A stretch of DNA of 53,788 nt from Candidatus Levybacteria bacterium RIFCSPHIGHO2_01_FULL_40_16 (GCA_001783805.1 MFNS01000002.1:1-53788), one strand, 5' to 3'; counted from the first letter of the stretch, positions 14,124 to 53,788 are shown. Notes: a model not told the origin generated them from the letters alone. Translations and numbers: made by a program.

Positions 14124-14131
14124 ATAGAGAA

Positions 14132-14240
14132 AATTTTCAATTTACAGTTTACAATTTTCAATAAATGATCCAATTATCAATGCTTGAAACATTGCGTGAT
14201 TGAAAATTTAATGAAAATTGCAAATTGGTAATTGCAAATT
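14132..14240. repeat. Intergenic palindromic element built from inverted heptamer arrays
   Basis: Left arm AATTTTC-AATTTAC-AGTTTAC-AATTTTC; right arm ...GAAAATTG-CAAATTG-GTAATTG-CAAATT. Related to 20042-20149. Confidence 0.75.
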
Positions 14241-14295
14241 GTTTTTATCATAGCATACTCTTGACAAGAAAATAAAATTATGTCACTCTAGATAC

Positions 14296-20038: not shown

Positions 20039-20041
20039 AAT

Positions 20042-20149
20042 AATTTTCAATTTGAAATTTAAAATTTTAAATCAAATCTAAATGTTTTAATTTTAAAAAT
20101 TTAAAATATTGAAAATTCAATGAAAATTAAAAATTGAAAATTTAAAATT
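20042..20149. repeat. Intergenic palindromic heptamer element (second copy of the 14132 family)
   Basis: Shares AATTTTCAATTT (12/12) and ATTGAAAATTyAATGAAAATT (20/21) with 14132-14240. Confidence 0.75.
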
Positions 20150-20195
20150 ATATATCTATTGACTTCCCCCCCCAACTTTGTCATATTTAATTAAG

Positions 20196-41157: not shown

Positions 41158-41796
41158 CTAAAAGACATTGTTATAGTAGTCATATTTGAGATTTGTCCGG
41201 TTCATCCAGTTGCCGGGAAAGTTGATCTGCCCTTTTGTGTAACGGAAAGAACCCTTATTCGCGTCTTCTCTCATGATAAACCAGGCGCCTTGGTGATTGG
41301 TAAATCCATAAAAAGCGATGATGCTGTCGTCAATCTCGGTAATATTGTATCCGACCAATGGCTGATCTTGTTCAAGATTGCTACTATCGGTTGCGGCAGT
41401 TTCCATATTTCTTTCCGATGGTGCCGGAGAACTTTTGGGAAATAGGTTTTCGAATTTTTTATTAAAAATTGAGAAGAGGAAAACGGCAAGTCCTGCACCG
41501 CCAATCAGTTTAAGAAATGCCCGCCTGTCAATATCGGCAATGCCTAGATTTTCTCCTATTGCCGCCCCGATTCCTGCCACCGACTTCATCGAAGGATGGC
41601 TCGTGGCCACCGATTCCCTAGAATATGCCGCCCGAGTCCGGCGCGGAAAGACTTTAAAGAAGAAAAGAATAAGCAATGGATAAAGAAGAATTGCGACGGC
41701 CAGCTGGAGATAGGTTTTGGCAGTCACAAACGTTGCTCCCACCACCAGGCCGGCGACTATAAAGATAAAACCGGTTAGAACCTTGCCTTTATTCAT
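41158..41796 (-). CDS. Hypothetical membrane protein with an internal RR motif
   Basis: Two N-terminal TM helices, DRRAFLKLIGG plus a TM helix, and an aromatic-rich C-terminal domain. Confidence 0.7.
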   Translation of the reverse strand: MNKGKVLTGFIFIVAGLVVGATFVTAKTYLQLAVAILLYPLLILFFFKVFPRRTRAAYSRESVATSHPSMKSVAGIGAAIGENLGIADIDRRAFLKLIGGAGLAVFLFSIFNKKFENLFPKSSPAPSERNMETAATDSSNLEQDQPLVGYNITEIDDSIIAFYGFTNHQGAWFIMREDANKGSFRYTKGQINFPGNWMNRTNLKYDYYNNVF

Positions 41797-42880
41797 TTAT
41801 CTCCTCCCTAACCTCTACATATGTTGCCGATATAAAGCCTGACTCGGTAGCTAATTTGACCTCATACCACTTTGAATCAGCAGAAACAAATTCGAAAATG
41901 TCGCCATCTTTAGCCTGTCCGATTATTTCCGAATTGGTGGTCGATTTTTGGCGGATGTTCACACTTTCCGCCCCATCACTAACTTTAACCGTTACGATCA
42001 TTTTGGGTTTTACCTCTTCTGTTGTTGAAAGAACTGCGGGAGCAATAGAAGGATTGAAATCATTGGCTGTGGAAACCATAACGTTTCTTATTCCGAAGGT
42101 AAACAGCAACAAAAATACTACAATTGTCGCCAGAAGTTCAGGCATTCTTTGCAGGGGCTTCAGAGAGGATTGTGCAGCTGTTTCCGGAAGATGATTTTCA
42201 ACATTTCTTGCAGGATCTCTCCTTTCAAGATGCTCAATTTCACTCTCAAAAGTGATATCCTTAAGAAGTTCCTTTACCTTTTGGTCGGGTTCGTATTTTT
42301 CCACAAAATCTTTGTATCCGGCCGTCCCCTTGCCAAAAAAAGACAGAACAATTTTCGGCTTAACCCAGGAAGTTTCTCTTGCACCCAAATATTCGCTATA
42401 GGATGAATGGCCGCCGGCATAATGGAAAAAACGAGTCAGGTGCGGCAGACGGGGTCCGCTCTTGATCTGAACTGACTTATATGGGCCTTCGAATAGAGCT
42501 CCTGTGCGCTGGTATTTCTTATTAAAATACATTGAATATCTGGTACACAAAGATCTGATAAAGCTCTCCAACGAGCCTTTGGCCACCTGATGCAAGAGTA
42601 AATGGAAGTGGCCCGGCATTAACATGTACGCGATGAGCTCAACTTTGTTGAAATAATTCTTAGGCTGGTGAGGAGTGCCTCGGAAAACGCGACCATTCAC
42701 CGTAAAAGACTTTTTGATGCTTTCGGGATCCTGGGGAGGAGTCAAATAACCCTCTAGGAAGTCAAGGAAGACCGTGTAATCCGCTTCGTCGTTGAAAATG
42801 ACCCTGTTCTCTACCCCTTTGTTGTAAATGTGGGAATAAATTCCTTCTTTCCGTTCCCTAAAGAGATTTTTGGCAGGCAT
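41789..42880 (-). CDS. RAYT/IS200-like HUH transposase domain fused to a TM helix and an SH3-type domain; probably catalytically dead
   Basis: HIYNKG, AYMLMPGHFHLL, YFNKKYQRTGALF and SSY..Y; TM LLATIVVFLLLFTFGI; VNIRQKSTTNSEIIG...WYEV...GFIS. Confidence 0.8.
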   Translation of the reverse strand: MPAKNLFRERKEGIYSHIYNKGVENRVIFNDEADYTVFLDFLEGYLTPPQDPESIKKSFTVNGRVFRGTPHQPKNYFNKVELIAYMLMPGHFHLLLHQVAKGSLESFIRSLCTRYSMYFNKKYQRTGALFEGPYKSVQIKSGPRLPHLTRFFHYAGGHSSYSEYLGARETSWVKPKIVLSFFGKGTAGYKDFVEKYEPDQKVKELLKDITFESEIEHLERRDPARNVENHLPETAAQSSLKPLQRMPELLATIVVFLLLFTFGIRNVMVSTANDFNPSIAPAVLSTTEEVKPKMIVTVKVSDGAESVNIRQKSTTNSEIIGQAKDGDIFEFVSADSKWYEVKLATESGFISATYVEVREEINE

Positions 42881-43047
42881 AATATTACAATACCTTGTAA
42901 GAAGATACTTTGCAAGTACCAATTTGAAGCTAAATCTTCCCGAAGATTAAGAAGAAGATGAATCCTTATAAGTATTTTTTGATATCAACCGCCCCAATAG
43001 ACTGCTAAACGGAGCTGAAGAAAAAGAATGTGCTATAATGAGCCGGA

Positions 43048-44097
43048 ATGAACACAACCAATGTCAAAAAATACCGCCCTATCCCGCTCTTTTATCCGTT
43101 TGTCAGCGAAGGCATGCGGCGAGCGGCTTATGATGCCTTGAAGGATAAAATTATTACCCAGGGCCAAAAAGTAATTGAGCTTGAAAAGCGCTTAAATTCA
43201 GCTCTTGGTACAAAAAACCTTCTGACTGTAAATTCCGGCAGTTCGGCTCTGGAATTAGCTTATCATCTTTTGGACTTAAAGCCCGGCGACGAGGTAATCG
43301 CTCCGGTATTCACCTGCACTATCACCAATCTTCCTCTCTTAAGAAGAGGAGTCAAAATTGTCTTTGCCGATGTGAAGGATAATCTTCTACCGGATTGGAG
43401 CGATATCGAAAGTAAAATTACTAAAAAAACCAAAGCCATAGCCGATGCTCATCTGTTCGGACAGCTCAATGAAACAAGAAATTTAGGAATACCGGTGGTT
43501 GGCGACGCAGCTCAATATTTGGGCAAAACTTTTGGTGAAAGATTTACCGCCTATTCTTTCCAGGCAGTCAAAATTATGACCACGGTAGATGGCGGAGCTT
43601 TGGTTTGTGAACGAAAACAGGATTACCGGCGGGCAAAGCTGCTTCGCTGGTACGGAATTGACCGGGAAACGGGCAAAGAAAGCTACGACGTGGACATCAA
43701 AGAAGCCGGATACAAATACCACATGAACGATGTCACGGCTGCGATTGGCATTGCCGGTTTAAAAATATTGGATAAGCTGAAAAAAGAACGTGCTACGCTC
43801 CAAAACCACTACAAGGAATGTTTAAGAGATATTCCCGGCCTTCAAGTTATTGGCGGCTCTCCATTTCTTATTCATGTTTTCAATCGGAAAAAACTTATGC
43901 ATAAACTGGCCATGGCAGGAATTGAAACAGGCCTTGGACATCGCCGCAATGATATGTATACGGTCTTCGGGGGAAGAAGACAAAATCTACCCAATATGAA
44001 CCGCTTGGAAGAAACTTATCTCCTGCTCCCCTGCCATAACCACATGACGGCAAATGACGTAGACTATATCTGCGAATCAATTAGAAAAAATATATGA
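43048..44097 (+). CDS. DegT/DnrJ-family aminotransferase
   Basis: NSGSSAL, GDAAQ, SFQAVKIMTTVDGG and GYKYHM. Confidence 0.92.
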   Translation: MNTTNVKKYRPIPLFYPFVSEGMRRAAYDALKDKIITQGQKVIELEKRLNSALGTKNLLTVNSGSSALELAYHLLDLKPGDEVIAPVFTCTITNLPLLRRGVKIVFADVKDNLLPDWSDIESKITKKTKAIADAHLFGQLNETRNLGIPVVGDAAQYLGKTFGERFTAYSFQAVKIMTTVDGGALVCERKQDYRRAKLLRWYGIDRETGKESYDVDIKEAGYKYHMNDVTAAIGIAGLKILDKLKKERATLQNHYKECLRDIPGLQVIGGSPFLIHVFNRKKLMHKLAMAGIETGLGHRRNDMYTVFGGRRQNLPNMNRLEETYLLLPCHNHMTANDVDYICESIRKNI

Positions 44098-44175
44098 TCC
44101 CGTTAGAAGCAAATTGCAACATAAACATTTTAGAATTCAAAATATGAGAAAAGCGATCGCAGCTTCTAACAGGAT
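44097..44175. mobile_element. MITE-like element, CCCGTTAGA/TCTAACGGG family
   Basis: ATCCCGTTAGAAGC...GCTTCTAACAGGAT (13/14 inverted repeat), with ATGA at both ends. Confidence 0.65.
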
Positions 44176-44767
44176 GATTAATTTCTCCTACAGAAAAGAT
44201 TGGCTAAATCCCCCCTGGTATTCTTCGTATGAAAAAAATAACTACGGAGATTTTTTTTACGCTCTAATGCGCGTTTATCAACCCAAAAAAGTAGTTGAAC
44301 TGGGAACTAAAGCCGGATACAGTGCTTTTCACATGGCCAGAGGACTTACGGCCAACGGCAAAGGGAAGCTAGATTGCTATGATCTTTGGGAAAACTATAA
44401 ATTTAATTCTGTCCCCCGGTCTCTGGCTGAAAAGAACTTAAAAAAATACAAAAAAATTGTCAGCTTAAGCTTACGGAATGCAATCGGTGTCGATAAGAGA
44501 TACAAAGAGATAGACATTTTACACGTGGATTTGAGCAACGAGGGCGGAATCTTGGAGAAGATAATCCCCTATTGGATAGACAAAGTCCGTCAAGTGATTA
44601 TTCTTGAAGGCGGTTCAAAAGAACATGACAAACTTCCCTGGATTAAAAAGTTTAAAAAAATCCCGGTTGAGAAATGGCTGGCAGATTTTATCCGCAAACA
44701 CCCAAACATTGAACATGTTACGATTGAACCATTCCCGTCAGTAACTATTCTTAGAAAAAATGAATAA
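44174..44767 (+). CDS. Class I SAM methyltransferase
   Basis: VVELGTKAGYS and DILHVD. The start is placed at the ATG after the repeat element, not at 44114. Confidence 0.75.
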   Translation: MINFSYRKDWLNPPWYSSYEKNNYGDFFYALMRVYQPKKVVELGTKAGYSAFHMARGLTANGKGKLDCYDLWENYKFNSVPRSLAEKNLKKYKKIVSLSLRNAIGVDKRYKEIDILHVDLSNEGGILEKIIPYWIDKVRQVIILEGGSKEHDKLPWIKKFKKIPVEKWLADFIRKHPNIEHVTIEPFPSVTILRKNE

Positions 44768-45818
44768 TAACTACAATCTCCCTGAGGAGCTAGAAGCGAT
44801 GCTTCTTGATTTCTATATGATGCCCGCCAAAAAAAGATATGTATCCGATGATTGGGTTAATAAAATTAACAATGGACGTGTTGCTAAATTGGCAGCAACC
44901 GGATATGAAAATTTCGGGCATACCTTGGCCATCGATTACTGCGCTTGGCTTGAAGATCCATCTATGCCAGGGGTTTCAAAATTACTCCAATCAAAGATTG
45001 ATTATTTATGCCGTAATCTTGGCTCAGAAGAAATCGCAAAAGCTAAAAAAGTAGCAAAAAAAATCCCGCCATCGCCGTATGCGGCTAAAGACTGTAATTT
45101 TATTACCCTGCTTCTTTGGCAATATGTAAAAAATCAAGGATTACAAAAAGAATCAAAAATGCTCAGTGAATCAAGCGAGGGCGACCCGACCGCAATTAAT
45201 TTTGAAGGCAAGCTAATTTCGCAAGGTCTGGGATATTCACTTCTGGAATACGATACAATACGTAAAAATACCGACATTAACTCAATCAAGTCCATAATGT
45301 CAATCGGCCCCGGATATGGGAGAACAGCCTATGTCTTTCTGCGTTTACTTAAGGTACAAAAATACATACTGATTGACATACCGCCCGCACTTTACGTAGC
45401 TCAAAGATATCTGGAAAACTTACTCCCCGAAAAGAAAATATTCAAATATAGAAAGTTCACATCTTTTAGGGAAATCGAAGAAGAGTTTGAGAAGGCGGAA
45501 ATCGTATTTCTTATGCCCTGGCAAATTGAACTGTTGCCGGAAAAATGTATCGATTTAATTACTGCCATTCTCTCATTTGATGATATGGACATAAGAACAA
45601 TAAAAAGATATCTTAAGCATATTAACACTCTAGGTAAACGTTATTTCTATCTAAAAACCTGGAAGGAATGGACAAACGAAAATAAAATAATAAAATGGAA
45701 GGAAAGTTGTCCGATACCAAAGAGTTGGAAAACCCTGGTATATCGCAGTTGCAGGGCGCAAGCCGATTACTCTGAAAAATTGTACAAACTGCCGAGACAC
45801 AGTAAATTAGAGCATTAA
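44760..45818 (+). CDS. Putative sugar O-methyltransferase
   Basis: SIGPGYGRTA, YILIDIPPALYVAQRYL and YLKHI. Confidence 0.8.
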   Translation: MNNNYNLPEELEAMLLDFYMMPAKKRYVSDDWVNKINNGRVAKLAATGYENFGHTLAIDYCAWLEDPSMPGVSKLLQSKIDYLCRNLGSEEIAKAKKVAKKIPPSPYAAKDCNFITLLLWQYVKNQGLQKESKMLSESSEGDPTAINFEGKLISQGLGYSLLEYDTIRKNTDINSIKSIMSIGPGYGRTAYVFLRLLKVQKYILIDIPPALYVAQRYLENLLPEKKIFKYRKFTSFREIEEEFEKAEIVFLMPWQIELLPEKCIDLITAILSFDDMDIRTIKRYLKHINTLGKRYFYLKTWKEWTNENKIIKWKESCPIPKSWKTLVYRSCRAQADYSEKLYKLPRHSKLEH

Positions 45819-45836
45819 CATGGCTAAAGCAATAAA

Positions 45837-46538
45837 ATGATCACTGTACATACGGTAGCTTATAATGAAAGCTTACTTATCCAGTTCATGATCGATCATT
45901 ACCGTAAGAGATTTCCGGGCTGTCGGATTATCGTGTACGATAATATGAGCACTGATAATACCGTTAAAATCGCTCTGGCCAATAATTGCGACGTTATCCC
46001 CTTTGATACGAACAATGAATTTCAAGACCGCCGGCATATGGAAATCAAAAATAATTGCTGGAAAGATGCAAAAACCGATTGGGTTTTAATGTGCGATCTG
46101 GATGAGTTGCTGGATATAAATGAAGTTGAGTTAAAAACGGAAGAAGGTTTCGGAACGTCAATGATCAGATGCGAGTTTTACGACATGATTAATATGGAAG
46201 ATAATTTGGATATTGCCGGCATGAAGTATGGGGAAAAAAGCCCACTACCTGGTAAGTTTTTGCTTTTTAACAAAAAGTTAATCAACGAAATAAATTACAC
46301 GCCAGGCGCTCACGGATGTAATCCAATGGGCACTGTTATATACAGCAACAAAGTATACAAGGCATATCATTACAATGCCATAAATGAGAATGTAACAATT
46401 GAGAAATTTAAGGACTACAGTGCGAGATTAAGTCCGGACAATATCAAGCATGGTTGGAGCCTTTTTGTTTTGTCTACGCCCGAACAAATCCGTGAGGAAT
46501 ATGTTGCCGGACGAAGCAAAGCAATAAAAGTACGCTGA
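45837..46538 (+). CDS. GT2-like glycosyltransferase
   Basis: VAYNE, YDNMSTD and MCDLDE; related to the N-terminal domain of 24344-25681. Confidence 0.8.
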   Translation: MITVHTVAYNESLLIQFMIDHYRKRFPGCRIIVYDNMSTDNTVKIALANNCDVIPFDTNNEFQDRRHMEIKNNCWKDAKTDWVLMCDLDELLDINEVELKTEEGFGTSMIRCEFYDMINMEDNLDIAGMKYGEKSPLPGKFLLFNKKLINEINYTPGAHGCNPMGTVIYSNKVYKAYHYNAINENVTIEKFKDYSARLSPDNIKHGWSLFVLSTPEQIREEYVAGRSKAIKVR

Positions 46539-47122
46539 TGAAAATTTTAATCGGAACACCAATTCACCAAGTTAAGGATTATTCCATGGAAAGGTGGCTT
46601 AAAAATGTCGCCAGACTCCAGAAGAAAACTCCGGCTGATTTATTTTTAATTGATAACTCCTCCGGACTTGACTATGTAGAAACAGTTAAGGGTTATTGCC
46701 AGAAATACGGCGTCAAAAATTACAAAATAAAACATTTGAATCTCGATCAAAAATTAAGCTCCGGCAGACGGATAAATATAGCGCAGGAAGCATTAAGACG
46801 AATAGCTATCGGCAAAGATTATGACGCTTGGTTTTCTTGGGAATGCGATCAAATCATACCAACCAATGCCCTGGATAAACTTATCAAGATAATGAAGTTA
46901 GGAAATTTCATGATGGTTGTACATAATTCTTGGGACAGGAAAATTCCCGCTGTCTTTAATTTCGATATGGGCTGCACCTTAATCACAAAAAAGTGCTTAA
47001 AATTAAAAAGAATTACCGACCTCTGGACAGAGGACTGGTTGGAGACACAAACTTTACAAAATGGAGGCAGTTTTGCCAATGTTCATGGAGCAATATGTCC
47101 GATTTATCATTTAAGAAAATAG
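46538..47122 (+). CDS. GT-A-like glycosyltransferase, KILIGTP family, copy 1
   Basis: MKILIGTPIH..KDY, DNS, SWECD and PIYHL. Confidence 0.7.
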   Translation: MKILIGTPIHQVKDYSMERWLKNVARLQKKTPADLFLIDNSSGLDYVETVKGYCQKYGVKNYKIKHLNLDQKLSSGRRINIAQEALRRIAIGKDYDAWFSWECDQIIPTNALDKLIKIMKLGNFMMVVHNSWDRKIPAVFNFDMGCTLITKKCLKLKRITDLWTEDWLETQTLQNGGSFANVHGAICPIYHLRK

Positions 47123-47125
47123 CCT

Positions 47126-47926
47126 ATGCAAATTGGAATAACAACAATACAACGTGACCGGGCACCTTGGATTAAGGAATGGATTGTCTTTCATTATCTG
47201 GTCGGGTTTAGAAAATTTTATATTTATCTACATAAGTGTTCCGATGATACCGAAAAGATTTTGAACAAACTAAAGCAGAAACTTGACATTGAAATTATGA
47301 TTGTGAACCCAAAATTAAAAACACCGCAACTTAAGAGCTACGAAGATGCATATACCAAATTCGGAGATGAAGTTGACTGGATGGCCTTCATTGATGGAGA
47401 TGAATTCCTCTTCCCCACAAAGGATAAATCAATGGAAATTGCGCTCAAAAAGTACTCGGACAAAAAACTTTCCGCTTTGGGCGTTTATTGGTCGTGTTTT
47501 GGCTCTAGCGGACACATAAAAGAACCGAAGGGTTTAATTATTGAAAATTATAAATACCGGGCAGAAGATAATTATTCAAACAACCGCCATATCAAAAGCA
47601 TTGTCCGCGGCGGACTTAAAAAGTTTACCCAGCCACCTGACAATCCCCATCTTTTCCAAACTCCGCAAGGCACTTTTGATGAAAATTTGCGGCCAATTAC
47701 TCAAGGCTGGACGGATTATAAACCCACTTACGAAAACTTCCGGATTAATCATTACATCACCCAGAGCCGCTCATTTTTCTTGAATTTTAAATCTAAAGTC
47801 AATCCCCCGGACGGCGCCTCAATGCGGGATGAAGCCTTCTGGAAAGAACACGATATAAACGATGTCCTAGATAATTCAATGGATAAGTTTATTAAACCTC
47901 TGAAAAAAATCTTAAAATCACTATAA
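47126..47926 (+). CDS. GT92/DUF23-like glycosyltransferase
   Basis: WIKEWIVFH, AFIDGDEFL, KSIV and INHYITQS. Confidence 0.82.
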   Translation: MQIGITTIQRDRAPWIKEWIVFHYLVGFRKFYIYLHKCSDDTEKILNKLKQKLDIEIMIVNPKLKTPQLKSYEDAYTKFGDEVDWMAFIDGDEFLFPTKDKSMEIALKKYSDKKLSALGVYWSCFGSSGHIKEPKGLIIENYKYRAEDNYSNNRHIKSIVRGGLKKFTQPPDNPHLFQTPQGTFDENLRPITQGWTDYKPTYENFRINHYITQSRSFFLNFKSKVNPPDGASMRDEAFWKEHDINDVLDNSMDKFIKPLKKILKSL

Positions 47927-48064
47927 TCAATCTTTTGACTGTATATTTTTGATTGCTTGACTATCGCCAACTTTATGCTTAAAATTACTTACAAAATTAA
48001 TGTCGCTAATTTATCCAAAACATCATCATGTCCGCGGCGGACGTGAATTTGCTAATATAGAGAT

Positions 48065-48751
48065 ATGATTCAAGTTAAGAACCCGGAGCCAAAAGAAAAC
48101 CTAATCTTCACCGCAAAAAAAACTGCCCCCTCCGGCAGATTCAAGGTTTTAATCGGCACGCCGATTCATGAGGTTAAAGACTATTGCATGGAAAAATGGA
48201 TTGCGAATGTGGCCAAATTACAGAAGAAAACTCCTGCAGATTTATTACTGGTAGACAACTCCCCTGACCTTAGTTATATAGAAAAAGTCAAAGGTTATTG
48301 CAAAAAATATAAAATTAAAAATTACAAGATTAAACATTTGGAAATCAATCAAAACCAGCCTGTGCCTGAAAGAATCGGCCGTTCTAGGGAAATAGTCAGG
48401 CAGGAAATTTTGGCCAATGATTATGGCGCCTGGTTTAGCTGGGAATCCGATCAAATTATTCCACCCAATGCTTTGGAAAAGTTAACCAAAATTATGGAGG
48501 CGGGAAACTATATGATGATTCATCCCAACACCTGGTCCAGAGTCTTTACGGGAGAACCGAACGTGAATTTCGGCGTCTGCCTAATTAAAAGGTGGTGTCT
48601 GGAAAAGTACGGCTTCTTACTTGAATTACCCGATATGCCCGACTGCTACGCTATGGTAGAGGCCTGGTTCAAGAAGAAAGTTCTCGCAGGCGGAGGTAAT
48701 TACATTGAAGTTTACGGACTGATTAAACCTATTTATCATTTAAACGCATGA
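48065..48751 (+). CDS. KILIGTP-family glycosyltransferase, copy 2
   Basis: KVLIGTPIHEVKDY, SWESD and PIYHL. Confidence 0.7.
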   Translation: MIQVKNPEPKENLIFTAKKTAPSGRFKVLIGTPIHEVKDYCMEKWIANVAKLQKKTPADLLLVDNSPDLSYIEKVKGYCKKYKIKNYKIKHLEINQNQPVPERIGRSREIVRQEILANDYGAWFSWESDQIIPPNALEKLTKIMEAGNYMMIHPNTWSRVFTGEPNVNFGVCLIKRWCLEKYGFLLELPDMPDCYAMVEAWFKKKVLAGGGNYIEVYGLIKPIYHLNA

Positions 48752-48821
48752 ATCCCTTTAGAAATAAAAAATCAGAGATTTTTGCCGACACGCCAAAGGC
48801 GAGTCGGATTTCTAACGGGAT
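48752..48821. mobile_element. MITE-like element, CCCGTTAGA/TCTAACGGG family
   Basis: ATCCCTTTAGAAAT...ATTTCTAACGGGAT (13/14), ATGA at both ends, internal hairpins. Confidence 0.7.
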
Positions 48822-49434
48822 GAGGGTCCTAATTGGCACACCGATACATGTCAGTAAAGATTATTCCATGGAAAGATGGCTGAAAAATGTAGCGGCAATG
48901 GAATATCCGGCCGATTTGCTGTTGGTTGATAACTCCCCCGGACTTGATTACGTAGAAAAAGTTAAGGGTTATTGCAAGAAATATAAAATAATGAATTATA
49001 CGCTGAAACACCTAGAGCTTCCCTCGGAACAAAAAGGAGATGAAAGGATAGCCCGTTCGCGGGAAATAATCCGGAAAGAAATTCTTTCTCACGACTATGA
49101 TTGCTGGTTTGACTGGGAGTCCGATCAGATTATACCGGCGGATGCCCTAGATAAGCTAGTTAAAATCATGGAAGCGGGAAACTGCATGATGATTGTCCAC
49201 AATAATGGAATTAGACAAATCCCGGGCGCAACCGGCTTTGACCTCGGCATTGCTTTAGTTAAAAGGGAGTGTCTGAAAAAATACAGTTTCATTCTTGAAT
49301 TCGGGACCGATCCTGATATGCCCGATAATTGGGATGCCGGCGACCAGTGGTATAAAAAACGGTTGCTCCGGGACGGAGGCAGCTATATTGACGCAATCGG
49401 AGTATTTGGTTTTATGTTTCATCTGGACAAATAA
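48820..49434 (+). CDS. KILIGTP-family glycosyltransferase, copy 3
   Basis: MRVLIGTPIH and DWESD. The ORF-track N-terminal extension (from 48748) is repeat-derived. Confidence 0.7.
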   Translation: MRVLIGTPIHVSKDYSMERWLKNVAAMEYPADLLLVDNSPGLDYVEKVKGYCKKYKIMNYTLKHLELPSEQKGDERIARSREIIRKEILSHDYDCWFDWESDQIIPADALDKLVKIMEAGNCMMIVHNNGIRQIPGATGFDLGIALVKRECLKKYSFILEFGTDPDMPDNWDAGDQWYKKRLLRDGGSYIDAIGVFGFMFHLDK

Positions 49435-49638
49435 CCATAAAAATTAACATAATTCATGCGGGTGAATTTTGATTATGGTATAGTTTTATCTAACAGGATG
49501 TTTGGAGAAATACATCCGGCTGCCCCAATGTTGTTTTTAAGACAAACCGATATTAATAAAGTATTATTAGTTTAGACAATTAAAAGTAAAGGAGAAAATT
49601 AAAGGTCTTTGGATTGTGGCCTTTTTTGACGTGATAAA

Positions 49639-50928
49639 ATGAAAATATTAATTGCGACGCCTGTTCACAAAATAAAAGATTATTGCATGGAGCGGTGGCT
49701 CAAGAATGTAGCCGAATTGCAGCCTGCCTATTCCGCTGACCTTTTGCTGGTTGATAATTCGCTTAACCTTGACTTTATGGAGAAGGTTAAGGGCTATTGC
49801 GGGAAATACAAAATCAAAAACTACAAAATTAAACATCTTGATCTTCCCCCAAACATAGAAAGGTATGAAAGAATGGCCCGCTCCCGGGAAATAATTAGGA
49901 ATGAGTTTCTCTCCAAGAATTATGATGCTTGGTTTAGTTGGGAGTCCGACATAATAATACCGACTGACACGCTAGGCAAACTGGTTAAATTCATGAAGAC
50001 GGGAGATTTTATGGTTATTGATCACAATTGTTGGATGAGGGGTTTTCCCGGCGCGTACTGCACCGACTTCGGCATTGCTTTAGTTGCCAGAAATGCCTTG
50101 GAAAAATACAGCTTCATTCTAGAGTTCGGAACCGATCCTGAAATGCCTAAGACTTATGAACCCAGCGAAGCTTGGTTTAAAGCGCGGGTTTTAAGAGACG
50201 GAGGCAACTGCATTGAGGTTGATAATTTAGTTACTCCGATAGCTCATTTGAATCCGATTGTCACCCAAAAAATGAAAGTCTTGATTGCGGCGCCAATTCA
50301 TGAATCCAAAGATTATTCTATGGACAGATGGCTGGAAAATGTCTCCCGGCAGGAACACCCTGCCGATTTGTTAATGGTTGATAATTCCGTCGGCACAGAA
50401 TATATGAGAAAGGTAGATATGTATTGCGCCAAACATGGAATTAACCCCGTTAGAAATCTCGGACAGAGTCCTATTTCTAACGGGGTAACCAACTACAAAA
50501 TCATTCATTTGGAATTGCCAATAGAGCAAGGGAAACATGAAAGAGTCGCCCGTTCCAGAGAAATAATCAGGCAATATTTTCTGAAACACGATTATGATGC
50601 TTGGTTTGTCTGGGAATGCGACCAGATTATTCCGGTCAATACTTTGGATAACTTAATTAAAATCATGCAACAGGAAAATTACATGATGGTTAATCCCAAT
50701 AAATGGGCCCGGGAAGACCCAACTATCCCCAATACCGATTTTGGAGTCTCTCTAATCAAAAGAGAGGCCTTGGGAAAACATAATTTCATTCTTGAATTCA
50801 ACGATCCTGAAACACCTGACACTTGGGAAACAGGAGAGAGCTGGTTCAAATCACAGGTTCTTAAAAACGGAGGCAGTTACATTGACGTTTATGGAATTAT
50901 TGACCCAATCTATCACTTAAATCAATGA
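49639..50928 (+). CDS. Tandem two-domain KILIGTP-family glycosyltransferase (copies 4 and 5)
   Basis: MKILIATPVH...PIAHL, then MKVLIAAPIH...PIYHL. Confidence 0.75.
   Translation: MKILIATPVHKIKDYCMERWLKNVAELQPAYSADLLLVDNSLNLDFMEKVKGYCGKYKIKNYKIKHLDLPPNIERYERMARSREIIRNEFLSKNYDAWFSWESDIIIPTDTLGKLVKFMKTGDFMVIDHNCWMRGFPGAYCTDFGIALVARNALEKYSFILEFGTDPEMPKTYEPSEAWFKARVLRDGGNCIEVDNLVTPIAHLNPIVTQKMKVLIAAPIHESKDYSMDRWLENVSRQEHPADLLMVDNSVGTEYMRKVDMYCAKHGINPVRNLGQSPISNGVTNYKIIHLELPIEQGKHERVARSREIIRQYFLKHDYDAWFVWECDQIIPVNTLDNLIKIMQQENYMMVNPNKWAREDPTIPNTDFGVSLIKREALGKHNFILEFNDPETPDTWETGESWFKSQVLKNGGSYIDVYGIIDPIYHLNQ
50444..50486. mobile_element. In-frame MITE-like insertion, CCCGTTAGA family
   Basis: Perfect 14-bp inverted repeat ACCCCGTTAGAAAT/ATTTCTAACGGGGT; adds INPVRNLGQSPISNG, which is absent from the paralogous domains. 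Confidence 0.75.
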
Positions 50929-51293
50929 ATCACGTTAGAGATTCAAGCCTTATCCCGTTAGAAATTCGCGGGATAAAAGATACAAATATGATTAACAATG
51001 ACAACAACAAGAGAGGAGATTTCTAACGGGACTTATGAAATATGTTTATGTTATACAAAGTTTAAAAAGCAACTATTGGTATACTGGCTTAACTAATGAT
51101 TTGCGGAAACGTTTTAATCAACACAATGAAGGAAAATCAACTTGGACAAAACCACGAGGACCGTGGGAATTAATATATTATGAAGCTTGTCTTGATGGGG
51201 ATGATGCGAAAGCGAGAGAAAAATATTTAAAAAGTGGTATGGGCAAACGTTATCTGAAAAATAGATTAAAACGTTTTCTATCTCTAACGTGAT
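50929..51293. mobile_element. GIY-YIG-encoding element with 14-bp terminal inverted repeats
   Basis: ATCACGTTAGAGAT (50929-50942)/ATCTCTAACGTGAT (51280-51293); a second inner pair at 50952-50965/51019-51032. Confidence 0.7.
51035..51292 (+). CDS. Small GIY-YIG nuclease
   Basis: YVYVI...YTGLTNDL..R..QH...TK..PW.LIYYE...A..RE..LK. Confidence 0.93.
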   Translation: MKYVYVIQSLKSNYWYTGLTNDLRKRFNQHNEGKSTWTKPRGPWELIYYEACLDGDDAKAREKYLKSGMGKRYLKNRLKRFLSLT

Positions 51294-51906
51294 GAAAATT
51301 TTAATGGGAACACCCGTACACGAGTGCAAAGATTACGCCATGGAAAGATGGCTTGAATCGGTATCGAAATTGGATTATCCTTTTGACCTATTGCTAGTGG
51401 ACAATTCCGAAAACCCCGGATATGTTAAAAAATTGCATGCGTATTGTAAAAAATACGAGATAACCAATTATAAATTGCTGCATGTTGACGTTGACAAAGA
51501 TACGATACTCGATGAGAGATTGGCCAAATCAAGAGAATTGATAAGGAGAGAGGTTTTGGACAAAAATTATGGAGCTTGGTTCTCTCTTGAATGCGATGTT
51601 ATCGCCCCGCCGGATGCGCTTTCCAAGCTGGTTAATTTAATTGAGGATAATTGGATGGTTAGCCATGCTTATCCTACCAGAGAAATTCCCAACGAAACCC
51701 ATGCGCAGCTTGGCATTTCCTTAATTAACCGGAAAGCGCTGACAGCACTTGGATTCATCAATGGATACGGCTACGTCAATCCCCTTTCGCCCAAAAGTTG
51801 GTACGGCTCTGACGTTTGGTTCATCAGGCGGATAGACACGGGCAATGCAGGCATACACATTAATGTTGATGGAATTATCAAGCCAATTTACCACTTAAGT
51901 CAGTAA
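51292..51906 (+). CDS. KILIGTP-family glycosyltransferase, copy 6
   Basis: MKILMGTPVH, SLECD and PIYHL. Confidence 0.7.
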   Translation: MKILMGTPVHECKDYAMERWLESVSKLDYPFDLLLVDNSENPGYVKKLHAYCKKYEITNYKLLHVDVDKDTILDERLAKSRELIRREVLDKNYGAWFSLECDVIAPPDALSKLVNLIEDNWMVSHAYPTREIPNETHAQLGISLINRKALTALGFINGYGYVNPLSPKSWYGSDVWFIRRIDTGNAGIHINVDGIIKPIYHLSQ

Positions 51907-51917
51907 TTTAATAAGTT

Positions 51918-53788
51918 ATGCTTAAATTTTATTACAGTAATTCCACCAACACAGCCACCCCAGGAAGCTGGCATGGAACTTGGAACGACAATGCTTCGGC
52001 TGTCACCAAATTGCTCGATACTGCTGCCAGCGGTACGGGTCCAAATGAACTCCCAATTACTGAAAACCAAAATTCTGCGGATTACAACGTTGCCATGGGA
52101 AGGTGGATTTCCGAAGCGCTGCCTACGGGAACCGTCTTTACCGCAGGCTCAACCACTTGGCAGTCTGTTGTGGGTGTGGGGGAAGATAACGCTGCTGCTG
52201 ATGAATTTGATAGATTCTACATTTGGATTTGGACGGGAAATGGCACCGGCGATTCATCTGCAGCTAATCTCGTTGCCAACGCAAATAACGCTACCGAATG
52301 GACAACGATTGTAGCCGGAAGACAGATGCTTAATTCCACTACCAATGCCATAGCCGATTCATACACTACTATTGCAGGAGACAGGCTAGTCGTAGAATTT
52401 GGTTATCATTCCACAAGTCAAGATACCACTACTTATACAGGCACGATGTGGTACGGGGGTGTGGGTGGAGATTTGGGCGTAAACGGCAACGAAACTAGCC
52501 TATCGGCATGGATACAATTTGATGGTGTTCCATCAGCCAGCCCATCTATATCGCCTTCTGCCAGTGCATCTATATCGCCATCCGCCAGTGAGTCCATCAG
52601 CCCCAGCGCTTCTCTATCGGTTAGTCCGTCAATCTCCCCTTCCGCCAGCGAGTCTATTTCGCCATCCGCCAGCGAGTCGATTTCGCCATCCGCCAGTATT
52701 TCTGCCAGTCCATCAATCAGTCCTTCCGCAAGTGAGTCGATTTCGCCGTCGGCCAGCGAATCAATATCGCCTTCGGCCAGTGAGTCGATATCGCCATCCG
52801 CCAGTGCGTCTATTTCGCCGTCTGCCAGTGAATCGATTTCACCGTCCGCCAGCGAGTCCATTTCACCGTCTGCCAGTGAATCGATTTCACCGTCGGCTAG
52901 TGAGTCTATAAGTCCTTCAGCCAGTGAGTCAATTTCACCATCCGCCAGCGTGTCAATTTCGCCGTCTGCCAGCGAGTCAATTTCACCTTCGGCCAGCGAA
53001 TCAATTTCACCATCTGCCAGTCCGTCAGCAGGTTCAGAATCTCCATCTGCCAGTGAATCAATTTCGCCGTCAGCCAGTGAGTCTATTTCTCCTTCCGCCA
53101 GTATTTCTGCCAGTCCATCAATCAGCCCTTCCGCAAGTGAGTCGATTTCGCCTTCTGCCAGCGCTTCAATTTCACCATCCGCCAGTGAGTCGATATCGCC
53201 TTCGGCCAGCGCTTCAATTTCGCCGTCTGCCAGCGAATCGATTTCACCGTCCGCCAGTATTTCAGTTAGCCCATCGATCTCTCCGTCTGCCAGCGAATCG
53301 ATTAGTCCGTCTGCAAGTGCATCCATCTCTCCATCTGCTAGCGAGTCGATTAGTCCTTCTGCCAGTGAGTCAAGGTCACCTTCAATCAGTCCGTCAGCCA
53401 GTGAATCAATATCTCCATCCGCTAGTGCTTCCATCTCCCCTTCAGCCAGCGAGTCCATTTCACCGTCTGCCAGTGAGTCCATAAGTCCCAGCGCTTCTCT
53501 ATCAGTCAGTCCATCAATTTCGCCTTCTGCTAGCGCCTCCATCTCTCCATCTGCAAGTGAGTCGATATCTCCATCAGCAAGTGTGTCTATTTCTCCGTCT
53601 GCCAGCGCATCGATTTCGCCGTCAGCCAGTATTTCTGTCAGTCCGTCAATCAGTCCGTCGGCCAGCGCTTCAATTTCACCTTCAGCCAGCGAGTCGATCA
53701 GTCCTTCCGCCAGCGAATCAATTTCACCTTCCGCCAGCGAGTCAATCTCTCCATCCGCCAGCGCTTCAATTTCACCTTCTGCAAGCGA
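51918..53788 (+). CDS. Serine-rich repeat protein, partial (more than 620 aa, open at the window end; missed by the ORF track)
   Basis: My translation from ATG 51918 has no stop: about 204 aa of unique Trp/Thr/Gly-rich domain, then (SASESISP)n from about 52530. Confidence 0.9.

Follow-up and report, generated by a model that had tools for sequence, protein, structure and literature searches.

We analyzed a 53,788-nucleotide stretch of DNA from Candidatus Levybacteria bacterium RIFCSPHIGHO2_01_FULL_40_16 (GCA_001783805.1, MFNS01000002.1:1-53788), here called the window, which contains a family of short inverted-repeat elements, one of them carrying a gene for a small GIY-YIG nuclease. The DNA is bacterial; it begins with the 5' end of a 16S rRNA gene (1-93) and contains four tRNA genes, and the relatives of its genes are found in Patescibacteria, in metagenome-assembled genomes (MAGs) of the Microgenomates type. 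The elements lie in a surface-glycan cluster of genes for a DegT aminotransferase, a methyltransferase, GT2 and GT92 glycosyltransferases and six tandem paralogues of about 200 amino acids (aa) that have no Pfam match. There are five arm pairs, all within 44097-51293, with the cores CCCGTTAGA and TCTAACGGG. The 9-mer CCCGTTAGA occurs six times where 0.30 occurrences are expected, and none of 100 shuffled sequences attained six. Matches to the 14-mer arm with up to two mismatches also fall entirely within 44097-51293, which is 7.2 kb of the 53.8-kb window. When folded as single-stranded DNA (ssDNA), the elements are more stable than shuffled sequence (z from -2.2 to -9.0). Scanned against Rfam at gathering thresholds, the window yielded only the tRNAs and the 16S rRNA end, and no known RNA family in the element region.

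The gene-bearing unit extends from 50925 to 51295 on the plus strand. Its outer arms, ATCACGTTAGAGAT on the left (50929-50942) and ATCTCTAACGTGAT on the right (51280-51293), match perfectly over 14 bp, and an ATGA is present at both ends (50925-50928 and 51292-51295), where the ATG of the right-hand copy (51292) is the start codon of the next glycosyltransferase-like gene. The arms enclose the nuclease gene (51035-51292, plus strand), whose 85-aa product matches Pfam PF01541 (E 2e-18). Both arms of this unit carry a rare change (C to A, G to T) that preserves their complementarity and moves the stop one codon earlier, yielding a protein of 85 aa rather than 86 aa. A further gene-less element, the fourth, is nested between the outer left arm and the nuclease ATG (50952-51032, plus strand; arms ATCCCGTTAGAAAT at 50952-50965 and ATTTCTAACGGGAC at 51019-51032), where it splits the unit's 9-nt 5' spacer. 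It is flanked by the repeat CCTT / ACTT, and is related to an element at 3586-3709 of L092, a Levybacteria MAG (JACVYF010000002.1) with the same gene order as the window (SH3 protein, DegT, methyltransferase, GT2 and others).

The remaining three elements contain no gene. Copy 1 (44094-44177, plus strand) consists of an ATGA at 44094-44097, arms at 44098-44110 and 44162-44174 with a 51-nt interior, and a second ATGA at 44174-44177, and lies between the stop codon of the DegT aminotransferase (44095-44097) and the ATG of the methyltransferase (44174). Its arms, TCCCGTTAGAAGC and GCTTCTAACAGGA, are complementary at 12 of 13 positions, its left junction is one base shorter than in the other copies and its DNA fold is the least pronounced (z -2.2 on the plus strand, -3.4 on the minus strand); it is a decayed member of a 'GCGATCGC-stem' subfamily of gene-less elements. 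Copy 2 (48748-48823, plus strand) is bounded by ATGA at 48748-48751 and 48820-48823 and has arms ATCCCTTTAGAAAT (48752-48765) and ATTTCTAACGGGAT (48808-48821), the final two bases of the right arm opening the right ATGA. The TGA at 48749-48751 is the upstream stop codon and the ATG at 48820 the downstream start codon, the 42-nt interior forms two internal hairpins, the reading frame is open throughout from the left ATG, and the folding energy is -22.1 kcal/mol (z -8.4). Copy 3 (50444-50486, plus strand; z -6.0) has arms ACCCCGTTAGAAAT (50444-50457) and ATTTCTAACGGGGT (50473-50486) that are complementary at all 14 positions, around a 15-nt loop. As an in-frame insert of 45 nt (15 codons), NPVRNLGQSPISNGV, it lies in the second half of a fused glycosyltransferase-like open reading frame (ORF, 49639-50928), at a point where five paralogues read K/G-I/V-K/T-N-Y and have no insert; 45 nt is the sum of a 41-nt element and a 4-nt repeat, which agrees with the 4-bp repeat geometry obtained from flank covariation (below). 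In addition, the intergenic sequence ATCCTGTTAGATAA (49486-49499, minus strand), upstream of the ORF at 49639, is a candidate solo right arm with three mismatches; no partner was found for it, and it may be the remnant of an element.

A first-pass annotation of this DNA had reported the 85-aa gene in its perfect 14-bp inverted repeat, the second pair nested upstream of its ATG, the three gene-less elements with shared ends (44097-44175, 48752-48821 and 50444-50486), the in-frame 15-codon insert, and the absence of a DDE or HUH transposase within the element. All of these observations hold, the one Y1-like gene of the region (41789-42922) lying outside the elements.

The nuclease appears functional, as judged from its sequence and predicted structure. 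The Pfam GIY-YIG domain spans residues 1-69 and there is no second domain; the AlphaFold2 model is a single compact domain (pLDDT 90.6), with structural matches to the UPF0213 protein BH0048, Slx1 and the catalytic domain of I-TevI. PDB entry 1zg2 is both the best sequence match (E 4e-7) and the top Foldseek match (E 2e-4). The residues expected to be catalytic in a GIY-YIG enzyme (Y5, Y16, R26, H30 and E50) are invariant in 36 aligned homologues, and the window protein has these and all other family-invariant residues. Across the ORF, the median dN/dS is 0.12 and the dS is about 1.6, indicating that the nuclease is under purifying selection and that synonymous sites are saturated. Because of this saturation, we take the family to be old; and because the arms nevertheless remain CCCGTTAGAG, selection acts on the sequence of the left arm, which is non-coding.

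We compared the window with 80 loci from species-representative genomes, which gave 84 hits homologous to the 85-aa protein. The arms enclose the GIY-YIG gene in 78 of the 84 (about 93%), so that the linkage of the repeat to small GIY-YIG genes, which the first-pass annotation had supposed, is very strong in this sample of 80 other genomes. The 78 units are 276-287 bp long and have a common plan of left arm, spacer, GIY-YIG ORF and right arm. The left arm, AYCCCGTTAGAGAY, lies 3-12 nt upstream of the nuclease ATG; the right arm is formed by the final codons, TCT CTA ACG GGA TGA, and the gene consequently ends L-S-L-T-G-stop, the arm supplying S-L-T-G-stop. There are 29 arm variants, and 59 of the 78 units have perfect 14/14 arms. 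At variable arm positions that were not used in finding the elements, the bases are paired in 96-97% of cases (48-58% in shuffles), and complementarity ends abruptly after 14 bp, showing that the two arms change together. Arm pairs contain either the GIY-YIG gene (261-300 bp spacing) or short non-coding DNA; we looked for other cargo inside them and found none, and no transposase of a known class lies inside the arms, the GIY-YIG nuclease being the sole encoded protein.

These results bear directly on whether the palindromes could be chance inverted repeats or ordinary transcription terminators. The arms do form hairpins and some copies are intergenic, as terminators would be, but the six core matches where 0.30 are expected, the conservation of the 14-mer over 80 genomes despite saturated synonymous sites, the lack of a T-run after the stem, and the presence of copies at start codons and inside ORFs refute this explanation, to which we assign a negligible probability.

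The family is very large. A word-indexed search found more than 4,500 clusters at 90% identity, the best 120 of which are 74-88% identical to the window protein, and an exhaustive search found 987 clusters at 50% identity with E 1e-10 or better; the exact window protein is known from this locus only, though in many samples. The G+C content of host loci varies from 28% to 61%, and the elements are mostly richer in A+T than their hosts. Element-bearing contigs carry MAG labels of many phyla. Two pairs of identical contigs are labeled as differing phyla (L035/L036, Woesearchaeota and Saccharibacteria; L049/L050, Planctomycetes and Syntrophales), and breadth outside Patescibacteria should therefore be treated with caution. 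A tblastn search of plasmids and phages returned only distant UPF0213-like or phage GIY-YIG matches (35-45% identity); no member of the family occurs in cultured plasmids or phages. Among IMG/VR viral contigs, we found no close homologue of the nuclease, and a gene-less copy (93-123-bp class) on three contigs only (L220-L222), which suggests that viruses are not an evident vector.

Gene-less copies, which range from 43 to 125 bp, are widespread. More than 30 of them, 43-123 bp long and with the same ends as gene-bearing units, occur in the GIY-centered loci, and more than 160 with the 14-bp arms were found overall. Part of these come from an independent metagenome sample, obtained by scanning contigs with an exact pattern for the 93-123-bp class, which matched at least 120 stretches and gave 126 distinct copies among the matches listed. 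Many gene-less copies have additional internal stems, including a recurrent subfamily stem, AGAAGCCGCGATCGC...GATCGCGATCTGCTTCT. The gene-less copy and the adjoining gene-bearing unit of two tandem pairs also have in common the 5' spacer as far as the ATG. We considered whether gene-less copies arose from gene-bearing units by internal deletion and rejected this as a general rule, as their interiors have no similarity and, these two pairs apart, only the arms are shared. Of the autonomous and non-autonomous pair proposed in the first-pass annotation, the common ends of gene-bearing and gene-less copies are thus retained, while a derivation of the gene-less interiors from the ORF is not.

We then asked whether the flanks of the elements carry the signature of insertion. 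The test covered 111 elements, aligned as four flanking bases (d1-4), two bases (xx) and the CCCG core on the left, and the CGGG core and four flanking bases (d1-4) on the right. The bases at -6 to -3, counted from the CCCG core, covary with those at +1 to +4 after the CGGG core (Z of 4.2, 5.6, 6.7 and 6.6). In the independent metagenome set, 74 of the 126 listed gene-less copies have a perfect 4/4 flanking repeat, where 11.4 are expected. The repeat sequences are diverse (ATGA 25, GTAA 25, ATGG 4, GTCA 3, then GTGA, GTTG, GTTT and others), and their first two bases (AT or GT) complement the first two bases of the element (AT or AC), which accounts for the apparent 14-bp length of the right arm. 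The simplest reading of these sequences is a 4-bp target duplication of the form RTNN, with the right arm completed by its first two bases. A plain 2-bp duplication outside full 14-bp arms was also tried; it fits many copies but not all, and the 4-bp geometry fits better.

Comparisons of orthologous sites reveal insertion polymorphism, and the empty or differently occupied sites expected under the first-pass reading do exist. The GT2 gene 'MITVY...' of L092 has a 117-bp element exactly at its ATGA start, whereas its window orthologue 'MITVH...' (45837) has a bare ATGA. At the DegT/methyltransferase junction, where the window has copy 1, L092 and L093 have a left arm only, fused in frame to the methyltransferase (MNPVRKNW... 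replacing MINFSYRKDW...). Two methyltransferase orthologues (L098 and L099) contain an 84-nt in-frame insert (PVRSKTS...TSNGV) with GTTG flanks, which is absent from fourteen other homologous proteins and from the genomic copies of L092, L094, L096 and the window (..IDILHVD..). If the nested element of the window is taken out along with one of the two CCTT/ACTT repeats, what remains is the 9-nt spacer '..gcctt ATG' of intact units in other genomes (L012, L014, L019, L020 and L025). In tandem arrays (L012, L035, L054 and L058), the new copy lies at the ATGA that closes the right end of the resident copy. From these sequence comparisons, we conclude that the DNA of these elements has moved many times. 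The elements have the structure of a transposon with terminal inverted repeats and accompanying MITEs (miniature inverted-repeat transposable elements), namely inverted ends, a target duplication and insertion polymorphism, and their enzyme is no known transposase.

The commonest target is the ATGA of a gene start; copies of a second class lie at GTAA, mostly between genes, and RTNN is the general form. Of 60 gene-bearing units, 48 have a right-hand ATG that begins an ORF of at least 60 codons (median 250 codons), and so do 23 of 25 gene-less copies of the ATGA class. The left TGA, in contrast, ends a long ORF in only 8 of 40 gene-bearing units and 5 of 25 ATGA-class gene-less copies. The overlapping stop/start junction that the first-pass annotation had named as the target consequently describes the three junction copies of the window but fails as a rule across genomes. 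In gene-bearing units, the duplicated host ATG overlaps the TGA stop of the nuclease, so that a coupled ATGA junction is recreated. From the left ATG, an open frame leads into the nuclease ORF in 24 of 42 units, and in several units this ATG is the only start codon; because it often serves as the nuclease start, database homologues exist in 86-aa and 95-aa ('MNPVRD...') forms.

Pieces of translated elements also appear in predicted proteins (P0029, P0043 and the 95-aa homologues), as an N-terminal MNPVRD extension, as a C-terminal '...SRLEV...TSNGT' tail that stems from a nested element, and as PVR...SNG(V/M) inserts in unrelated enzymes. They are a systematic annotation artefact, or possibly exaptation. 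In L092 (3001-3709), a methyltransferase gene is enclosed by a solo left arm and by the next element's right arm, and an ATGA stands at either side. In this composite arrangement, the host gene may be mobilizable, or the arrangement may be the product of recombination between two elements.

Taken together, we read the elements as a large, old family of transposon-like palindromes, comprising GIY-YIG units of about 280 bp and gene-less hairpins, that would move by means of the nuclease; we put the probability of this reading at roughly 60%. The first-pass interpretation was largely right in outline and is partly supported: the target and the origin of the gene-less copies need revision, and the role of the enzyme is inferred.

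The nearest precedent in outline is the Ssn system of Neisseria. SsnA is a 94-aa single-domain GIY-YIG protein (cd10448), a site-specific nuclease that cuts only ssDNA, beside a 28-nt hairpin repeat (NTS/SRM) (PMC11893778), copies of which flank ssnA and number in the hundreds (Chenal et al., Nat Commun 2025, PMC11893778). Its authors pointed to the layout, which resembles an insertion sequence (IS), and to an analogy with repetitive extragenic palindromes and their associated tyrosine transposases (REP/RAYT), mobility being put forward as a hypothesis only (PMC11893778). The window family likewise has a single-domain GIY-YIG protein of about 90 aa, a gene flanked by a hairpin repeat that also exists in many gene-less copies, an IS-like architecture and a clustering around surface-related genes. 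To compare the proteins, we located a gonococcal ssnA in PLSDB with a probe of the common proteobacterial type, which served to find the gene only, and validated it by its 16 NTS repeats, which lie within 1 kb on either side. The window protein is 33% identical to this bona fide SsnA over 67 residues of the catalytic core. We gauged membership of the SsnA/cd10448 clade by a proxy, the hidden Markov model (HMM) and phmmer scores against gonococcal SsnA and Bacillus subtilis YazA; the family HMM gives YazA (UPF0213) 50.5 bits and SsnA 29.1 bits, and phmmer gives 45.7 and 19.1 bits. By this score-based measure, the window family is closer to UPF0213/YazA than to SsnA and falls outside the SsnA/cd10448 clade. 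The C-terminal thirds differ (KSGMGKRYLKNRLKRFLSLTG in the window family, KKWNRAWKLQLIEENN in SsnA), and the SRM pattern HGTCWY..YYVSBRH..WNVSBRG..RNCYNB has no match in the 53.8-kb window and nine in the 5.3-kb gonococcal ssnA locus. Moreover, a single arm pair encloses the window gene and its right arm is coding, whereas in Ssn the gene has arrays of self-contained 28-nt hairpins on each side. The window family also shows target duplications, targeting of start codons and insertion polymorphism.

The Ssn precedent also supplies an alternative, in which the system is domesticated and not mobile at present: the nuclease would be a host enzyme of ssDNA restriction or regulation, for example limiting natural transformation, and the palindromes would be its recognition sites, kept near particular genes. 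Neisseria SsnA and NTS do modulate transformation, and NTS repeats cluster around surface genes (PMC11893778). In keeping with such a role, all five window copies lie within 7.2 kb of the glycosyltransferase cluster, the nuclease is under strong purifying selection, the strain variants of the window are without polymorphism, and the L092 methyltransferase gene enclosed by a left and a right arm is a host gene. However, the target duplications, the nested, tandem and in-frame insertions and the occupied and empty sites record many past moves, the family lies closer to UPF0213 than SsnA and lacks the Ssn repeat motif. We consider domestication unlikely as the whole explanation; it is also compatible with nuclease-based movement, as elements of mobile origin could later have taken on a host function.

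How, then, could a GIY-YIG nuclease move the elements? GIY-YIG enzymes hydrolyze DNA and cannot rejoin it; consequently, if the nuclease acts in movement, host enzymes must do the rejoining. On the precedent of Ssn, the nuclease would recognize the arms when they pair in ssDNA, such as that of replication forks or of DNA entering the cell, and would nick the base of the stem. It could act in trans on gene-less copies, and host ligase and polymerase could complete excision and insertion. Target choice may in part depend on base pairing between the terminal dinucleotide of the element and the target, as suggested by the match of the element's AT/AC to the target's AT/GT.

Several observations weigh against nuclease-based movement. 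We know of no strand transfer by GIY-YIG nucleases, and that the nuclease itself moves the elements is a connection that we infer. A GIY-YIG homologue is present at only 6 of the 120 listed loci chosen by a gene-less copy, so that the enzyme, if it acts on gene-less copies, acts in trans. The interiors of gene-less copies are unrelated to the nuclease ORF, and their arms differ in detail, with TTAGAA in most gene-less copies and TTAGAG in 72 of 78 gene-bearing units. The length of the flanking repeat is ambiguous, as 2, 3 or 4 bp fit, given the xT target preference. Direct repeats are missing from about one-third of gene-bearing units (flanks TTYA...TRA), whose inverted repeat instead runs 3-5 nt further outward. 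Finally, ten strain variants of the window (L001-L010, at least 99.6% identical) include no empty site and no indel at any element; because they do not differ at the elements, this population gives no indication of recent movement.

The shared arms and differing interiors of gene-bearing and gene-less copies, with the gene exactly between the arms, would fit classical homing, in which the GIY-YIG enzyme would cut a gene-less palindrome as its target and repair from a gene-bearing copy would place the gene in the loop. Homing endonucleases of the GIY-YIG type are well established, and I-TevI is among the structural matches; these enzymes have extra DNA-binding domains and long targets, and spread through recombinational repair. 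The window protein, by contrast, is a bare 86-aa domain that has no DNA-binding domain for a long target, and its element has inverted-repeat ends and target duplications, so that the likeness to I-TevI and the T4 Seg enzymes is confined to the catalytic domain and a selfish-gene lifestyle. The 14-bp arms are far too short for recombinational homing, the TTAGAG of gene-bearing arms differs from the TTAGAA of most gene-less ones, and homing leaves unexplained how the palindromes spread, with target duplications, to hundreds of unrelated 4-bp sites. We therefore regard homing as a very improbable account.

The unrelated interiors would also fit a reading in which another enzyme moves the palindromes and the GIY-YIG gene is only a passenger or a secondary invader of their loops. 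A candidate of the REP-associated Y1/HUH type is encoded in the window (41789-42922, minus strand): a 377-aa protein with an N-terminal Y1/HUH transposase-like domain, then a hydrophobic segment and a C-terminal SH3_3 domain. It matches Pfam PF01797 (Y1_Tnp) at 26.9 bits (cut-off 23) and has the HUH motif HFHLLL and a plausible catalytic tyrosine, and the action of Y1 enzymes on DNA hairpins is established for REP/RAYT and IS200/IS605. But Y1-like homologues occur at 2 of 80 GIY-centered loci and at none of the 120 listed gene-less-element loci. The gene itself lies 1.2 kb upstream of copy 1, outside the elements and without flanking arms, and is a conserved member of the syntenic cluster in L092; its product has a membrane segment and an SH3 domain. 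In addition, IS200/IS605-type elements have neither terminal inverted repeats nor target duplications, whereas the window elements have both, and the arms enclose the GIY-YIG gene in about 93% of cases and no other gene. This explanation is accordingly a long shot. Apart from its bearing here, a membrane-anchored HUH protein that is syntenic in a second Levybacteria genome is unusual in its own right.

The elements have features in common with several known systems. With REP/RAYT and IS200/IS605, they share a small nuclease gene that lies between inverted copies of a palindromic repeat, many further gene-less copies, a presumed action on ssDNA hairpins and a possible choice of target by base pairing of the element's end. 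They differ in the enzyme, which is a hydrolytic GIY-YIG nuclease where RAYT is a Y1/HUH transesterase, the flanked gene not being Y1, and in the repeat, which is unrelated to the GTAG/CGTC-tagged REPs. From these comparisons of sequence and layout, the window system resembles Ssn/SRM and REP/RAYT in outline and is a member of neither. Like bacterial MITEs and Rickettsia palindromic elements, the gene-less copies are short and hairpin-forming, with terminal inverted repeats and target duplications, and their translated in-frame insertions into genes (here PVR...SNG(V/M)) recall the Rickettsia elements in architecture. The bacterial MITEs known so far stem from IS elements with DDE transposase genes, whereas the sole partner that shares the ends of the window elements encodes a GIY-YIG nuclease, in a complete coding unit of about 280 bp. 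By sequence and structure, the nearest matches of the nuclease are the UPF0213/YazA/YhbQ proteins (PDB 1zg2 and 1ywl) and Slx1, which are of similar size and have the same GIY-YIG core. In B. subtilis, the annotation places yazA between the housekeeping genes trmNF and rsmI and, to our knowledge, UPF0213 proteins have no repeat association and no established repeat-linked function. A search of open-access papers and bioRxiv preprints for the motif and for GIY-YIG proteins with MITEs, terminal inverted repeats or target duplications found the Ssn paper alone to be relevant, although a description may exist elsewhere.

We tentatively extend this reading to a bolder one, to which we give somewhat less than even odds: that the elements are prokaryotic DNA transposons of a new class, with an 86-aa GIY-YIG nuclease as their only protein, and that at about 280 bp they would be the smallest autonomous cellular mobile elements known. 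Such a transposon would insert at start codons, borrowing the host's translation start and handing it back via the ATGA overlap, and would mobilize hairpin MITEs, with the host rejoining the DNA.

Other features of the window stand apart from these elements. The six tandem paralogues (MKILIGTPIH...) lie on the plus strand at 46538-51906, inside the glycosyltransferase cluster, and the sole Pfam signal among them is one weak, sub-threshold match to Glycos_transf_2 in the paralogue at 51292-51906. The 429-aa ORF at 49639-50928 consists of two of these paralogues, fused through loss of the stop codon between them. The region at 52433-53542 and beyond is highly repetitive and open on both strands, with DGEIDSLA-type repeats on the minus strand; in contigs that are otherwise identical (L001-L008), the minus-strand gene encodes 983, 989, 1003 or at least 1029 aa, suggesting a repeat protein of variable length. 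Two long, intergenic, A+T-rich near-palindromes (14124-14248 and 20040-20151), with arms of 62 and 55 nt that are 71-76% complementary, have no sequence relation to the GIY-YIG-linked elements.

The pairing of a small GIY-YIG nuclease with a hairpin repeat, described for Ssn in 2025, is here extended to a second protein family, and the sequence evidence that such repeats are insertions is new, being missing from the Ssn work. If the enzymes are sequence-specific for ssDNA, they would add new specificities to the Ssn toolbox. There is also a practical consequence for annotation, as many predicted Patescibacteria proteins carry false N-terminal extensions (MNPVR...) and in-frame inserts (PVR...SNG). 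If the nuclease does move the elements, the GIY-YIG mechanism would join the DDE, HUH, serine and tyrosine recombinases among bacterial transposases, and the lower size limit of an autonomous element would be redrawn. A parasite of this kind would live cost-free in the operons of streamlined genomes, by duplicating a start codon and restoring translational coupling. The elements may thus be DNA parasites of ultra-small bacteria, and a new, very small kind of bacterial transposon.

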